Shown here: positions 2,975-14,338 of the stretch, in pieces
Layout: each line of letters begins with the position of its first letter
Numbering within the stretch: the stretch's first letter is position 1
UHGV virus genome: UHGV-2126844
Source: a virus
Strand: one strand, 5' to 3'
DNA length: 20,767 nucleotides
Made by a program: the position numbers and the translations under genes
The notes under the pieces: generated by a model
Seen by the model: only the letters and a program-made list of their open reading frames with translations
Databases searched by the model: none
What the model was told of the DNA's origin: nothing

Positions 2975-3403
2975 TTATTCAATATCTATTCCTGTAATAT
3001 CTTTTATCTTTTTCCTTGCAAAGCCTTTTGCTAGTGATTTTGAAACACTTATTAGTGTACTAATTCCCTCATCCTTAAAGTTTGTTTTTATAGTTTGCCA
3101 GACCTCCTTTTGACGCAAGTCAGCAATAAAATCATGCCCTCTTGCTGTCAACCTCAGTGGTACTTCGATCCAACTATATCCAACACCTTCCCCTAACTCG
3201 TTGGACATTATATGACCGAACCCAGGTTTTCCATCAACCCTGACTATTAATTCGTAGTCGCATAATAATCGCATATGGAAAATAAAATTTTGGTCATATC
3301 TATTAAAGCCATTATCCTCTAGTTCACTAAGCATCGTGTCAGGGCCATGAGTTTTTTCGAATGCGATAAGTAGATCTTTTAGATATTGCTGGTCTAATTT
3401 CAT
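2975..3403 (-). CDS. Hypothetical 142-aa cytoplasmic protein, non-lambda; family not assignable by eye
   Basis: Clean ORF with a strong RBS (GGAGG, 6 nt before ATG at 3403). Occupies the position where lambda has ea8.5. No signal peptide or transmembrane segment. Translation MKLDQQYLKDLLIAFEKTHGPDTMLSELEDNGF... not recognised. Confidence 0.6.
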   Translation of the reverse strand: MKLDQQYLKDLLIAFEKTHGPDTMLSELEDNGFNRYDQNFIFHMRLLCDYELIVRVDGKPGFGHIMSNELGEGVGYSWIEVPLRLTARGHDFIADLRQKEVWQTIKTNFKDEGISTLISVSKSLAKGFARKKIKDITGIDIE

Positions 3404-3431
3404 TGCCGCCTCCGTGACATGTCACAGAGAT

Positions 3432-3770
3432 TTATATCATTAATTTTGTTTCGTGCCAGCCTTTGGTCACCCAGCATTGTGAGTCACCATTACACGGGCA
3501 TGAATTAACAGGAACTCTCTCGCCGCACTTACCGCAACGTTTTCTGCTGATCGATTTTATACGCCAGCGCACACGTGCATCATCCTGGCGGCTCAGTAAC
3601 GCGATGTACTCACCAAACTCGTAAGGCGCATGCCTGAAGCGGCGCGTGGCTCAGTTACGATCCAGCATTTCAATTTCCTGAGCATCAAGTACAAGCTCCA
3701 GCTTACGCATACCGGATGATGCTTGCTTGGCTCTCTGATCGACTTTGCGCTCTGCTGATGATTTAGCCAT
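3432..3770 (-). pseudogene. 112-codon frame encoding a ribbon-helix-helix-like N-terminus and a C-terminal zinc ribbon (CGKCG...CPCN...C), interrupted by an in-frame TGA at 3651-3653; nonsense-disrupted gene or two very small genes
   Basis: Manual translation: MAKSSAERKVDQRAKQASSGMRKLELVLDAQEIEMLDRN-stop-ATRRFRHAPYEFGEYIALLSRQDDARVRWRIKSISRKRCGKCGERVPVNSCPCNGDSQCWVTKGWHETKLMI. RBS AGGAAAAG before ATG at 3770. No in-frame ATG after the TGA; only a GTG about 46 codons from the end. Confidence 0.4.
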
Positions 3771-3964
3771 TCTGCTTTTCCTGCATTAGGAGAAAGACAA
3801 TCATGGCGGCGCGGATACTTCCGGTATCTTTTTACTCGATATTACCCTTCAATGGCACATACAAGAAGAGAGCCATCAACAGGAGTGAGTGAGGAATCGA
3901 CAACCAGCAACTCTTAATTATCTATAGTGTCGTATTTGCTTCATAAAATATGGCGAATAACACA

Positions 3965-3998
3965 AAGCCCGCAGCAGCTCATTGTGCGGGCTTTTCTT
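3965..3998 (-). terminator. Candidate intrinsic terminator hairpin (9-bp stem aagcccgca/tgcgggctt, 11-nt loop) between the 204-aa gene and the downstream operon; U-rich on both strands
   Basis: Read directly: plus aagcccgcagcagctcattgtgcgggcttttctt; minus-strand RNA has the same stem followed by uuugugUUaUU. Confidence 0.45.
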
Positions 3999-4063
3999 AT
4001 ACATACTTCCTAGAGATAATTCTATGGAGGCATTAAATTAATACTGTCATTGGTAATATCATA

Positions 4064-4678
4064 TTATCTAAAAGTCTTTCCACTTTTAACGTCTAGGTAT
4101 ATTCTGTTCGACAACGTCATTCCTCCGCAATATGTGAAATAGATGTTTTTCCCCTTATTGCTTGATGCCATCCACCCTCCGATTTCCTTAAAGTCGCTTT
4201 CCGTGCAGACCCCTTCGTTTATTAACTTCCTAGCTGCCGAAGAAAACTCTTTTTTGTATATACGGTAGTCATCAGATCCTTTGATTAAAGTATCATCTCC
4301 GCTCGCATTTTCAGCAGGATCTGATGGCCTTTCACTGCTAAGATCACTAAGTTTAACCCATTCTGAAAACTTGCCATTGACGATTCCGTTTTTTCTTGTG
4401 CAGGATTTATTACCTTCTTTAATATATTCGCTTTCCCCTCCCACACATGAGGCTGAATATGGCTCAGTTATACGAACCCATTCACCTTTTTTTTCTAGAA
4501 AATCTACGCCTTCCCTGAAAAATAGTTTCCCAGCCACTCCACATTTACTTGAAGGGCAGGTATGTCTTTCCGTTCGATCAACAACAACCCAAAGTCTTGA
4601 TTCATTTTTTGCCATTGCCGATGGTATTTGAGATGAGACAATTAACGTAAGCCCTAAAATTAGTATTGATTTTTTCAT
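4064..4678 (-). CDS. Secreted or periplasmic cysteine-rich hypothetical protein (204 aa) with a cleavable signal peptide; prophage cargo
   Basis: N-terminus MKKSILILGLTLIVSSQIPSAMA-KNES is a typical Sec signal peptide with an AxA cleavage site. Mature part has 7 Cys and two similar ...GxW/FxEWV+... segments. RBS AAGGAA before ATG. Terminator-like hairpin downstream. Not a lambda gene. Confidence 0.65.
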   Translation of the reverse strand: MKKSILILGLTLIVSSQIPSAMAKNESRLWVVVDRTERHTCPSSKCGVAGKLFFREGVDFLEKKGEWVRITEPYSASCVGGESEYIKEGNKSCTRKNGIVNGKFSEWVKLSDLSSERPSDPAENASGDDTLIKGSDDYRIYKKEFSSAARKLINEGVCTESDFKEIGGWMASSNKGKNIYFTYCGGMTLSNRIYLDVKSGKTFR

Positions 4679-4976
4679 TGTAATTTCCTTTTACTTTTTA
4701 CAAAGCGTTTAATCATGGCTGATTATCTTTAAGCGTAGTAACAGCCTTGTGCGAAACATGTTACCAAATCGCCATTTCAGTGTATCCGCAGTTAGGCTGC
4801 CACTTCAAGGATTCCTAATTACATGGTACGTAAGCGTAAAATCCCGTTGGTTGTCGGGTAATAACTCTGATCAAATCTCCCTTGTCTTTTGCTCTTACGT
4901 ATGCAGCTCTTGTGTATTCAACCCAGGCCTCCAGTTCAGCAATACGCTTACTTCCATCCGAGATAACACCTTCTAC

Positions 4977-5228
4977 TCACGCTGCTCGTTGAGTTTTGAT
5001 TTTTGCTGTCTCCAGCTCAACACGCAGTTTCCTCACCGTTAGCGCAATATCCTCGTTCTCCTGGTCGCGGCGTTTGATGTACTGCTGGTTTCTTTCCCGT
5101 TCATCCAGCAGTGTCAGCACAATCGATGGTGTTACCAGCTCATGGAAAAGGTCCGCGTCAAATCCCCAGTTGTCATGCATTGCCTGCTCTGCCGCTTCAC
5201 GCAGTGCCTGAGAGTGAATTACGCTCAC
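4977..5228 (-). CDS. 83-aa ORF at the ea22 position, translationally coupled to orf73 (GTGA overlap); the same frame continues for 53 codons past an in-frame TGA (4977-4979) to TAG at 4815-4817
   Basis: Track ORF MSVIHSQALREAAEQAMHDNWGFDADLFHELV...KTQRAA (the M is a GTG start). Manual translation after the TGA: VEGVISDGSKRIAELEAWVEYTRAAYVRAKDKGDLIRVITRQPTGFYAYVPCN. Assignment to ea22 is by position only. Confidence 0.5.
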   Translation of the reverse strand: MSVIHSQALREAAEQAMHDNWGFDADLFHELVTPSIVLTLLDERERNQQYIKRRDQENEDIALTVRKLRVELETAKIKTQRAA

Positions 5229-5446
5229 TTCGAACCTCTCTGTTTACTGATAAGTTCCAGATCCTCCTGGCAACTTGCACAAGTCCGACAACCCTGAACG
5301 GCCAGGCGTCTTCGTTCATCTATCGGATCGCCACACTCACAACAATGAGTGGCAGATATAGCCTGGTGGTTCAGGCGGCGCATTTTTATTGCTGTGTTGC
5401 GCTGTAATTCTTCAATTTCTGATGCTGAATCAATGATGTCTGCCAT
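5225..5446 (-). CDS. orf73: TraR/DksA-family C4 zinc-finger protein (73 aa), lambda Orf73-like
   Basis: 73-aa ORF with CxxC...CxxC (CCECGDPIDERRRLAVQGCRTCASCQ), characteristic of TraR-like RNA-polymerase-binding proteins. Size and position between the ea22 region and exo match lambda orf73 as recalled. Confidence 0.8.
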   Translation of the reverse strand: MADIIDSASEIEELQRNTAIKMRRLNHQAISATHCCECGDPIDERRRLAVQGCRTCASCQEDLELISKQRGSK

Positions 5447-6183: not shown

Positions 6184-6860
6184 CGCCATTGCTCCCCAAA
6201 TACAAAACCAATTTCAGCCAGTGCCTCGTCCATTTTTTCGATGAACACCGGCACCATCTCGTCAAAACTCGCCATGTACTTTTCATCCCGCTCAACCACG
6301 ACATAATGCAGTCCTTCACGCTTCATACGCGGGTCATAGTTGGCAAAGTACCAGGCATCTTTTCGTGTCACCCACATGCTGTACTGCACCTGGGCCATGT
6401 AAGCCGACTTTATGGCCTCGAAACCACCGAGCCGGAACTTCATGAAATCCCGGGAGGTAAACGGGCATTTCAGCTCAAGGCCATTGCCGTCACTGCATAA
6501 ACCATCGGGAGAGCAGGCGGTGCGCATACTTTCGTCGCGATAGATGATCGGGGATTCAGTAACATTCACGCCGGAAGTGAATTCAAACAGGGTTCTGGCG
6601 TCGTTCTCGTACTGTTTTCCCCATGCCAGCGCCTTAGCATTAACTTCCGGAGCCACACCGGTGCAAACCTCAGCCAGCAGGGTGTGGAAGTAGGACATTT
6701 TCATGTCAGGCCACTTCTTTCCTGAGCGGGGCTTGGCTATCACGTTGTGAACTTCTGAAGCGGTGATGACGCCGAGCCGTAATTTGTGCCATGCATCATC
6801 CCCCTGTTCGACAGCTCTCACGTCGATCCCGGTACGCTGCAGGATAATGTCCGGTGTCAT
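6180..6860 (-). CDS. exo: Lambda exonuclease (Red-alpha), 226 aa
   Basis: Full-length ORF; translation [65 protein letters not shown]... matches lambda Exo as recalled. Confidence 0.96.
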
Positions 6861-7300
6861 GCTGCCACCTTCTGCTCAGTGGCTTTCTGTTTCAGGAATC
6901 CAAGAGCTTTCACTGCTTCGGCCTGTGTCAGTTCTGACGATGCGCGAATGTCGCGGCGAAATATCTGGGAACAGAGCGGCAATAAGTCGTCATCCCATGT
7001 TTTGTCCAGGGCAATCAGCAGAGTGTTAATCTCCTGCATGGTTTCATCGTTAACCGGAGTAATGTCGCGTTCCGGCTGACGTTCTGCGGTGTATGCGGTA
7101 TTTTCGACAATGCGCTCGGCTTCATCCTTGTCATAGATACCAGCAAATCCGAAGGCCAGACGGGCACACTGAATCATGGCTTTATGCCGTAACATCCGTT
7201 TGGGATGCGACTGCCACGGCCCCGTAATTTCTCTGCCTTCGCGGGTTTTGAATGGTTCGCGGCGGCATTCATCCATCCACTCGGTAACGCAGATCGGATG
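6857..7300 (-). pseudogene. bet: 5'-truncated bet (Red-beta): only about the C-terminal 140-145 codons remain; homology ends near 7300 with an in-frame TAG immediately upstream
   Basis: Minus-frame translation ...NHPICVTEWMDECRREPFKTREGREITGPWQSHPKRMLRHKAMIQCARLAFG...KATEQKVAA matches the C-terminal half of lambda Bet. Upstream of about 7300 the sequence is unrelated and AT-rich. Confidence 0.85.
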
Positions 7301-7462
7301 ATTACCGGTTCGCTACCAGGGAAGAACGGGAAGGAAAGGTGAGCACGAATCTGATTTTCAAGGAGTGTCGCCAGAGTGCCGCGATGAAGCGGGTGTTGGC
7401 ATTTTATCGCGGCAATTTTCAATAGACTATGTACATAAAAATATCATTTTTTTAATACATGT

Positions 7463-11172: not shown

Positions 11173-12255
11173 TTAGAACTGGTAAACCATACCTACAGCA
11201 ACGATATCATCGGTAGCAACGCCAGATGCTTTCGTGAAATCGCTCTTATCAATCAGGTTGATTTTGTAATCAACAAAAGTGGACATATTTTTGTTGAAGT
11301 AATAGGTTGCACCTACATCAATATATTCAACCAGGTCCTGATCACCCCACGCACCCAAGTCTTTTCCTTTAGATTGCAGGTAAGCAACGGACGGACGCAG
11401 ACCGAAGTCGAACTGATATTGTGCAACTACTTCGAAGTTTTGTGCTTTGTTGGCAATATGGTTATTACCAAAAACAGTCATGTTCTGGGTTTCAGAATAG
11501 GTGGTAGCCAGATAGATGTTGTTCGCATCATATTTCAGACCAGCTGCCCATACTTCAGCATTTTGACCAGATGCATTCAGGCTGTTGTTACCGTAGATAA
11601 CCTGATTATTAGTGCGGTCAGATTTAGCATAGGTTGCACCTACACCGAATCCTTCATACTCATAAGTAGTGGAGAAACCGAAACCATCACCATTAGCTTC
11701 AGTTACGTCAGTGCGGTCATTTTTACCCTGATACTGAGCAGCAAAGTTCAGACCATCAACCAGACCAAAGAAGTCATTGTTACGATAAGTTGCAACACCT
11801 GTGGTGCGACCAGTCATGAATACATCTGTTTGGGTCCAGGTATCGCCACCGAATTCTGGCAGAACGTCGGTCCATGCACCAATATCGTATGCTACACCGT
11901 AGTTACGGCCATAATCGATGGAGCCGTAGTCACCGAATTTCAGGCCAGCGAAGGCAAGACGGGTTTTATCTTTGGAGGAACCTTGAGATTCAGCGCGGTT
12001 GCCTTTGAATTCATATTCCCACTGACCGAAACCAGTCAGTTGATCGTTGATTTGGGTTTCACCTTTGAAGCCAAGACGGGCATAAGTAGTATCACCATCA
12101 TCTGCATCATTAGAGGAGAAGTAGTGCTTAGCATTAACTTTCCCGTACAGATCCAGCTTGTTACTGTCTTTATTATAAATTTCAGCTGCCTGAGCAGACA
12201 TCGCCATCAGTACTGATGCAGCTACAGCAGAAATTGCCACTGTTAATTTTTTCAT
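11173..12255 (-). CDS. nmpC: OmpC/OmpF-family general porin NmpC, apparently intact (360 aa precursor)
   Basis: Start taken at [23 protein letters not shown] (signal peptide); ends ...VAVGMVYQF with the C-terminal Phe typical of porins. Uninterrupted frame. Lies opposite in orientation between Q and the lysis genes. Confidence 0.9.
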
Positions 12256-12681
12256 CGTGAGCCCTTTTTTTGAACTATTATTAAAAAATGATGTCACTGC
12301 GCGATAAATATTCATCTAATCAATGTGATTATTTCAAGATGTAAGTTTTGGTTTCTCATTTGATTTGTGAAGTAGATCTCTATTTTTATCTGAACTTTTT
12401 CTATCGAATCCTATTCATGGCTCTTGGCTGAATAAAAATAAATCTATTAGCCAATTTATATTAATGGCTGTTATTTATAAGTGCTCTATAATTTGAAGAT
12501 TCAATTTAAACCAGCTAAAAATAACGCTGGAAATTATTTGTTGGTTATTTGTTGAGATTTGCTTATGTATTTGTAGTGGTGTTTTCAATACTCGGTAGCA
12601 TTCTCGCAAATATCATTTAGTGGTTTACGTACGTAAAAAATTGGTTATGCTGTTAAGAGTGGTTACTTCGTCACACAGCTT

Positions 12682-14044: not shown

Positions 14045-14338
14045 TTATTGTGAGCAATACACACGCGCTTCCAGCGGAGTATAAATGCCTAAAGTAATAA
14101 AACCGAGCAATCCATTTACGAATGTTTGCTGGGTTTCTGTTTTAACAACATTTTCTGCGCCGCCACAAATTTTGGCTGCATCGACAGTTTTCTTCTGCCC
14201 AATTCCAGAAACGAAGAAATGATGGGTGATGGTTTCCTTTGGTGCTACTGCTGCCGGTTTGTTTTGAACAGTAAACGTCTGTTGAGCACATCCTGTAATA
14301 AGCAGGGCCAGCGCAGTAGCGAGTAGCATTTTTTTCAT
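14045..14338 (-). CDS. borD: Bor lipoprotein (serum-resistance family), 97 aa
   Basis: MKKMLLATALALLITGCAQQTFTVQNKPAAVAPKETITHHFFVSGIGQKKTVDAAKICGGAENVVKTETQQTFVNGLLGFITLGIYTPLEARVYCSQ matches lambda Bor as recalled. Confidence 0.9.
   Translation of the reverse strand: MKKMLLATALALLITGCAQQTFTVQNKPAAVAPKETITHHFFVSGIGQKKTVDAAKICGGAENVVKTETQQTFVNGLLGFITLGIYTPLEARVYCSQ

Follow-up and report, generated by a model that had tools for sequence, protein, structure and literature searches.

Why does a prophage that has lost most of its virion genes carry a small gene for an exported protein without a name? The question is raised by the virus genome UHGV-2126844, a stretch of 20,767 nucleotides (the window) that is 100% identical to a defective lambdoid prophage of Escherichia coli between ybhC and ybhB, a location which we take to be the lambda attachment site. 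The gene is an open reading frame (ORF) at 4064–4678 on the minus strand. Its product is predicted to combine a signal for export by the Sec pathway, an SH3b-type domain and a second, C-terminal domain (C-domain) that has not been described before. Sequence comparisons portray it as cargo of several kinds of mobile element, and a protective role in the cell envelope would be its most probable function. The elements of the gene are as follows.

4064–4678, minus strand: coding sequence, including the stop codon, of the 204-amino-acid, predicted exported protein; ATG start
4610–4678, minus strand: type-I Sec signal peptide MKKSILILGLTLIVSSQIPSAMA, codons 1–23
4334–4597, minus strand: SH3b-type beta domain, codons 28–115, with an inserted loop and four conserved cysteines (41, 46, 78 and 93)
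4067–4297, minus strand: C-terminal alpha+beta domain, codons 128–204 (helix, helix, three strands), with invariant C158 and C184
4686–4691, minus strand: Shine-Dalgarno sequence AAAGGA, kept in the copies of Escherichia fergusonii and of Escherichia phage Chlobot

A genuine gene for a predicted exported two-domain protein

The ORF is genuine and far beyond a chance frame because its product has 82 full-length homologues, its ratio of nonsynonymous to synonymous substitution rates (dN/dS) is 0.085 relative to the E. fergusonii copy, and the full-length AlphaFold2 (AF2) model reaches a mean predicted local distance difference test (pLDDT) score of 90.5, with residues 1–8 below 50. It is under strong purifying selection; dN/dS relative to the Chlobot copy is 0.097. 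The corresponding RefSeq entry, WP_000748284.1, is annotated as 'hypothetical protein', and the matching PHROG family, 8310, carries the label 'unknown function'.

The signal peptide was called by inspecting the sequence by rules. A charged n-region (MKK), a hydrophobic h-region (SILILGLTLIV) and a c-region ending in small residues (SSQIPSAMA) precede a predicted cleavage site between AMA and K, with KNE as the start of the mature protein. The A-x-A motif occupies positions −3/−1, and the hydrophobic N terminus ends similarly across the homologues. These features agree with the initial annotation, which had described a 204-amino-acid protein with a Sec signal peptide and an AxA cleavage site, translated from a ribosome-binding site of its own; the latter corresponds to the AAGGA located 7 nt before the ATG. 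A reading of the protein as a lipoprotein was rejected because inspection of the sequence revealed no lipobox cysteine at position +1, the first cysteine being residue 41; the Pfam profile LPAM_1 scored 14 bits, under its cut-off of 20. The mature protein of approximately 20 kDa contains six cysteines (C41, C46, C78, C93, C158 and C184), one fewer than the seven counted initially.

According to the AF2 model and the homologue alignment, two compact domains are connected by a conserved RPxDPA linker. The SH3-like beta-barrel of the first is superimposable on solved SH3b domains, and the best structural matches of the model are the SH3b modules of endolysins, lysostaphin and NlpC/P60 enzymes. 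Some homologues match the Pfam family SH3_3 (PF08239). The C-domain, when modelled alone, folds into two helices and a three-stranded sheet (pLDDT 89.4), and its motifs are S135-D136-D137, G167-G168-W169 and Y180-F-T-Y-C-G-G186. It has no match in Pfam, NCBIfam or BFVD and no genuine match in the Protein Data Bank (PDB). For the protein as a whole, NCBIfam returned nothing, and Pfam just sub-threshold matches to SH3_3 and LPAM_1. No catalytic domain was found in it or in 20 longer relatives scanned, and literature searches by accession, phage name (Chlobot) and topic retrieved nothing on this protein. Going by the model, it is an SH3b-type domain joined to a previously undescribed C-terminal domain. 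The initial annotation had regarded the function as unknown from sequence, a statement that can now be sharpened to an SH3b domain followed by a new, predicted extracytoplasmic domain.

Sequence matches in the PDB to de novo designed TIM barrels (E values from 1e-6 to 4e-9 with family profiles) were rejected as spurious because they represent the sum of four copies of a short 'SDDWR..K.A..A..LI' helix, with no single stretch being significant, and because the fold of the C-domain, helix plus three strands, is not that of a TIM barrel.

The C-domain defines a family confined to double-membraned bacteria

Among 1.84 billion representative sequences, a profile of the C-domain retrieved 529 clusters at 50% identity (E ≤ 1e-3). 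The statistics on domain position and N termini derive from 227 collected members, and conservation from 221 aligned sequences. Both cysteines are invariant (221 of 221 sequences), and conservation of at least 91% applies to S135-D136-D137, F145, L152, G167-G168-W169, S172, Y180-F-x-Y-C-G185 and Y194-L195. The domain is located at the extreme C terminus of nearly all proteins (220 of 227). A hydrophobic N-terminal segment is present in 171 of the 219 members that look complete, and a lipobox-like motif in 48.

Slightly less than half of 146 representative matches (67) have an SH3b domain, while the other 79 consist of the C-domain alone; such stand-alone proteins are typically exported and about 100 amino acids long. 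Further partners are ankyrin repeats, IalB, zinc-ribbon regions located N-terminally of the exported part and, in a single protein, Imm_superinfect. In this protein, P0159 (198 amino acids), the C-domain follows a signal peptide and precedes a membrane domain of the Imm_superinfect type (PF14373; E value 2e-17) at the C terminus. As far as the sequences tell, the partners are solely anchoring or binding parts. All 80 recovered genome loci of the family belong to double-membraned lineages (Alpha-, Beta-, Gamma- and Epsilonproteobacteria, Acidobacteriota, Vampirovibrionales, Bacteroidota and others), and some of the distant relatives are found in prophage-like or island-like regions.

A mobile cassette shared by unrelated elements

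The ORF has a GC content of 39.2%, and the GC fraction of the region from 3900 to 4950 is about 0.37–0.40 versus 0.49–0.53 on either side. As determined with blastn, the DNA common to the window and a P1-like plasmid of E. fergusonii is confined to 4062–4820 (85% identity). The mobile cassette common to lambdoid and P1-like elements thus spans 759 bp, i.e., the ORF and 142 nt upstream, and in the E. fergusonii plasmid it adjoins humD.

4679–4820, minus strand: 142-nt 5' region transferred together with the ORF (blastn boundary 4820–4062); candidate regulatory region

More distant homologues of the protein (58–69% identity) are found in Citrobacter, Pseudomonas and Aeromonas. In Citrobacter, the carrier is a ColE1-type plasmid of 5.3 kb. 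In Pseudomonas, a gene for a 424–499-amino-acid integrase immediately precedes that of the homologue, in islets of approximately 5 kb:

L002:6402–12411, L007:537–6065, L008 and L009: Pseudomonas islets

In a prophage of Aeromonas hydrophila, it is part of about 12 kb of cargo between antiterminator and holin genes (L005:4241–16009). Copies of the ORF with 98.5–99% identity reside on large plasmids of Citrobacter, Klebsiella, Enterobacter and E. coli (plasmid matches H53–H68), and an IncA plasmid of Citrobacter (L096, NZ_CP022274.1) has captured an entire fragment of the prophage arm. Within E. coli, 132 of 5426 complete genomes contain the cassette. There, the downstream flank with its hairpin is always linked to the ORF (133 genomes with the flank versus 129–132 with the ORF), and a search for empty sites with this flank in E. 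coli turned up no genome in which the ORF was missing beside it. To judge from these comparisons, the ORF is horizontally mobile cargo on several unrelated elements.

Lambda itself lacks a homologue, as had been noted initially, and a tblastn search of 50,697 phage records returned phage Chlobot as the only match. This intact phage of 46.5 kb carries the same module (98% identity) with the ORF co-oriented in a block that runs N, ..., exo, ..., DksA-like gene, ORF, UmuD-like gene, DUF2513 gene, xis, int. The leftward early block of lambda is the pL operon, and the ORF of Chlobot is, by this analogy, positioned for transcription with the early-left genes. In the prophage remnant, a truncated recT adjoins a ren fragment on the opposite strand (approximately 6857–7425), the intervening stretch being deleted. 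The corresponding stretch of lambda harbors N, pL and the repressor genes (immunity region). Because the recT-ren stretch is lost, any expression of the ORF in the remnant must be independent of pL. The position of the ORF is compatible with an early lytic gene no less than with a moron expressed in the lysogen.

Signals for expression

The terminator hairpin that had been proposed downstream of the gene is indeed present.

3956–3994, minus strand: intrinsic-terminator-like hairpin with a U-rich tail, 70 nt past the stop codon

The hairpin itself (approximately 3964–3994) has the stem AAAGCCCGCAGC/GCUGCGGGCUUU followed by UUUGUGUUAUU and a predicted stability of −19.2 kcal/mol (z −2.1). A consensus scan flags it in the plus orientation alone, and the terminator therefore appears to be bidirectional. 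A separate bidirectional terminator is located 3' of the E. fergusonii copy. No RNA family was detected by Rfam between 3800 and 5100, the sole match being Thr-leader (E value 0.36) over the terminator.

Inspection of the 142-nt 5' region by eye revealed only weak σ70 promoter candidates, with 8 of 12 consensus positions; a site with 9 of 12 is present at the homology boundary of the E. fergusonii copy. Compared with shuffled sequence, the 161-nt leader has a more stable fold (z −2.7). Within 4679–4823 (minus strand), the sequence CCAUGUAAUU...UCCUU at the 5' edge of the cassette shows complementarity to the region of the Shine-Dalgarno sequence and start codon about 140 nt downstream, and in E. 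fergusonii an ATG-to-GTG change is paired with a U-to-C change in the complementary partner, a comparison that comprises two distinct sequences only. A long-range pairing that occludes the Shine-Dalgarno sequence was considered and set aside, as a different fold has the minimum energy in the E. fergusonii leader and as non-homologous leaders lack the pairing.

Outside E. coli, the start codon of most homologues is TTG (Citrobacter plasmid, Aeromonas and Pseudomonas) or GTG (E. fergusonii), a hint that translation of family members is typically initiated weakly. The leaders of the Citrobacter and Aeromonas genes are nearly identical across the last 35 nt or so.

L095:2914, L005:8001, L002:8001, L007:1891 and L012:4232: TTG or GTG starts of homologues

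Proposed role and competing explanations

Taking all observations together, the explanation that we consider probable, if by no wide measure, is that the cassette encodes a Sec-exported, peptidoglycan-tethered and non-enzymatic periplasmic binder that serves envelope protection in conflicts. The protein would be exported via Sec and oxidized in the periplasm, where three disulfides (41–46, 78–93 and 158–184) would form. Judging from the model, the SH3b domain may dock it on peptidoglycan, and the C-domain would bind, rather than modify, a periplasmic partner or ligand via a conserved surface of Ser-Asp-Asp and aromatic residues. The benefit would be protection at the level of the envelope, by blocking peptidoglycan-degrading proteins or entry steps of incoming phages, or some other muralytic attack. 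In the intact phage Chlobot, the ORF would be transcribed with the early-left genes. A protective or exclusion role in the envelope is our best single guess because the C-domain is combined with alternative anchors (soluble and lipoprotein forms, zinc-ribbon regions, SH3b, Imm-like), because the family is restricted to double-membraned bacteria, and because the gene recurs on phages, plasmids and islets, in many cases beside defence or counter-defence genes.

A number of results weigh against this proposal. The SH3_3 profile scored just 16.1 bits on the protein (E value 0.013), below the cut-off of 27, and the PADLOC models yielded no family at E ≤ 1. A consensus scan from 3400 to 5300 detected no σ70-like promoter on the minus strand. 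At least four independent IS1 insertions, in at least five of approximately 132 carriers, disrupt or abut the ORF and argue that some strains can do without it and perhaps bear a cost from it. The insertions either mark the AT-rich cassette as a hot spot or reflect selection to silence or alter the ORF. Clustering of ORFs over 83 related loci disclosed no neighbour that is conserved beyond genus-level synteny. Many distant relatives reside in ordinary chromosomal contexts, e.g., between metW and pheT, and those of a Vibrio clade are syntenic, and the ancestral role of the family may be unrelated to phages.

The initial annotation had put forward an autonomous moron that is expressed from the repressed prophage and provides a periplasmic factor for lysogenic conversion or superinfection exclusion. 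A self-contained cargo gene, distinct in GC content, is supported by the data; a promoter of its own was not found, its autonomy is putative, and the role in conversion or exclusion is conjecture. We regard this explanation as a possibility of second rank. It is favored by the co-transfer of the conserved 142-nt 5' region with the ORF, by the intact state of the ORF in a remnant where its expression cannot depend on pL, by the cargo or defence regions that harbor relatives in Aeromonas, Marinobacter and the P1-like plasmid, and by the fusion of the C-domain to Imm_superinfect. Yet this fusion concerns one distant relative out of 227, neither a known exclusion family nor any PADLOC model is matched, the TTG and GTG starts of many homologues suggest low expression, and in Chlobot the ORF is embedded co-oriented in the early-left block. 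The latter position, between the DksA-like gene and xis/int in the N-to-int block, together with the failure to detect a promoter on the ORF strand, is what speaks for a gene of the lytic cycle read from the leftward early transcript, which would guard or adjust the sacculus by delaying lysis or blocking secondary infection and would confer no trait on the lysogen. The terminator would be no obstacle to such a gene, as N-modified transcription complexes of lambda read through terminators. Against it stand the retention of the ORF in remnants that have lost the capacity for lytic growth and the differing transcriptional settings of its relatives (next to humD on the P1-like plasmid, between antiterminator and holin genes in Aeromonas, behind an integrase gene in Pseudomonas, and on a ColE1-type plasmid). 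We consider a purely lytic function improbable.

An improbability of the same order applies to the view that the protein is a general housekeeping or structural component of the envelope of double-membraned bacteria which hitch-hikes on mobile elements and has no part in conflicts between phage and host. The non-mobile chromosomal sites of distant members, including the syntenic ones of the Vibrio clade, and the wide taxonomic spread are in line with it. By contrast, all copies examined in Enterobacterales, Pseudomonas and Aeromonas are located on or next to mobile elements, the small minority of E. coli genomes with the cassette does not fit a housekeeping gene, and the copy that hops between elements is under strong purifying selection. 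A degenerate endolysin or cell-wall hydrolase that has kept nothing except its SH3b part, or an accessory lysis protein, is suggested by the top structural matches. This explanation is effectively refuted: the protein has its own signal peptide and a full-length 204-amino-acid architecture conserved across genera, a hydrolase domain is present in no relative examined, dN/dS is about 0.09, and the ORF lies in the early-left arm, away from the lysis genes at approximately 12.8–14.0 kb of the window.

Coming back to the tethered periplasmic binder, it is tempting to go one step further and to speculate that the C-domain (SDD...C...GGW...YFTYCGG...NRIYL) is the first representative of a new class of periplasmic modules for inhibition or exclusion, a doubtful proposition in our own estimation. 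Tethered by SH3b or by lipid, transmembrane or Imm-like anchors, it might neutralize muralytic proteins or phage entry machinery, and such an activity would explain why several kinds of mobile element carry it as cargo.

Relation to known systems

The first domain shares its fold with SH3b cell-wall-binding domains (PF08239; PDB entries 9ovi, 3pvq, 4krt and 6rk4). Unlike these, it has no catalytic domain attached, is predicted to reside in a Gram-negative periplasm, and possesses a loop closed by two additional cysteines (78 and 93) as well as the Cys41/Cys46 pair. No homology to a known phage structural or lysis protein was found, beyond the resemblance of the SH3b domain to the binding domains of endolysins.

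The ORF resembles the lambda morons bor and lom in being a small cargo gene whose GC content deviates, with a terminator at its 3' side and an envelope-targeted product; phage growth does not require it, and some related prophages have it while others lack it. It differs from both in that it is located in the early-left arm and not in the late region and in that a promoter of its own is not evident. Moreover, the product of bor is a lipoprotein and that of lom forms a barrel in the outer membrane, whereas the protein described here is predicted to be soluble and periplasmic and is unrelated to either in sequence and fold.

Lysozyme inhibitors (Ivy, PliC/MliC and PliG) and periplasmic immunity proteins against muralytic effectors are small, exported products of single genes of double-membraned bacteria that occur sporadically and exist as soluble and lipoprotein versions. 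The C-domain family likewise includes soluble and lipoprotein-like versions, which is a functional analogy only: the protein has no sequence or structural match to Ivy, MliC/PliC or PliG and no recognizable inhibitory loop motif. With the envelope-acting superinfection-exclusion proteins Imm and Sp of T4, Llp of T5, Cor, and SieA of P22, it has in common that it is a predicted exported protein of a temperate phage, and Imm_superinfect occurs in one distant relative; however, it shows no homology to any of them. To judge from sequence, the ORF behaves genomically like a lambdoid moron and belongs to no described exclusion, lysozyme-inhibitor, lysis or defence family. Its sole novel element is the C-domain family; otherwise the ORF is of a familiar class of prophage cargo.

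Lambdoid prophages have many genes without a name in their left arm, and one of them can now be described concretely, as encoding a predicted exported SH3b protein with an undescribed second domain. The latter belongs to a family of considerable size, with 529 or more clusters at 50% identity, that has been acquired repeatedly by phages, plasmids and integrative islets. If it is a module for envelope protection or exclusion, it would be a new periplasmic player in conflicts between phage and host and among phages, and a new peptidoglycan-tethered binding scaffold. If not, a new Pfam family could nevertheless be proposed on the basis of the well-defined C-domain. As a single gene for a protein of about 20 kDa with a high-confidence model, the ORF is easy to test.

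Genomic surroundings

The gene order of the remnant is ybhC, int, xis, DUF2513 gene, decayed S24/UmuD-like fragments, ORF, truncated ea22-like gene, TraR/DksA-like gene, exo. The genes that border the low-GC insert, and DUF2513, are located as follows.

4977–5228, minus strand: truncated ea22-like pseudogene at the upstream edge of the insert (RefSeq annotation of the identical locus; composition profile)
3845–3910, minus strand: remnant of an S24/UmuD-like gene at the downstream edge, corresponding to the UmuD-like ORF of Chlobot
2975–3403, minus strand: DUF2513 gene, downstream of the ORF

The remnant measures approximately 22 kb, with nohD fused to a lom fragment further to the right, and keeps a gene for an OmpC-like porin (11173–12315, minus strand), bor (14045–14338, minus strand) and a lysis cassette.

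Both types of element have an S24/UmuD-like gene along with the ORF; in the lambdoid one it is decayed and lies downstream (3593–3910, minus strand), and in the P1-like one it is intact and lies upstream. This hints that recombination at umuD- or humD-like genes moved the cassette.

L012:3681–4073 and L011:6769–7086: S24/UmuD-like genes at other loci

In ATCC 8739, and probably also in the equivalent KCTC 2571, IS1 is located some 60–110 nt upstream of the ATG. In PSS-16, EC529 and 1332KP, it lies inside the ORF, at three different sites and in both orientations (equivalent sites in L102–L105).

The captured fragment of NZ_CP022274.1 comprises DUF1317, DUF1382, the DksA-like gene, the ORF and DUF2513; it is placed between a Tn3-family transposon and IS5 and adjoins an ars operon. 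The Aeromonas cargo also contains an Eco29kI-like restriction-modification pair, a Gp49/HTH toxin-antitoxin-like pair and a DUF2971 protein. Other genes of the Pseudomonas islets code for a PHROG-129-like regulator and for proteins of 105, 130 and 337 amino acids without a family match; these islets may represent small integrative elements or some kind of satellite.

In an island of Marinobacter litoralis, which also carries PIN, NERD and MqsA-like genes, a DUF2513 gene (L099:5401–5763) lies immediately 3' of a stand-alone C-domain gene. This neighbour is restricted to the E. coli/Chlobot module and Marinobacter and is present in none of the other 95 or so loci; its recurrence may be a coincidence or a weak functional link.

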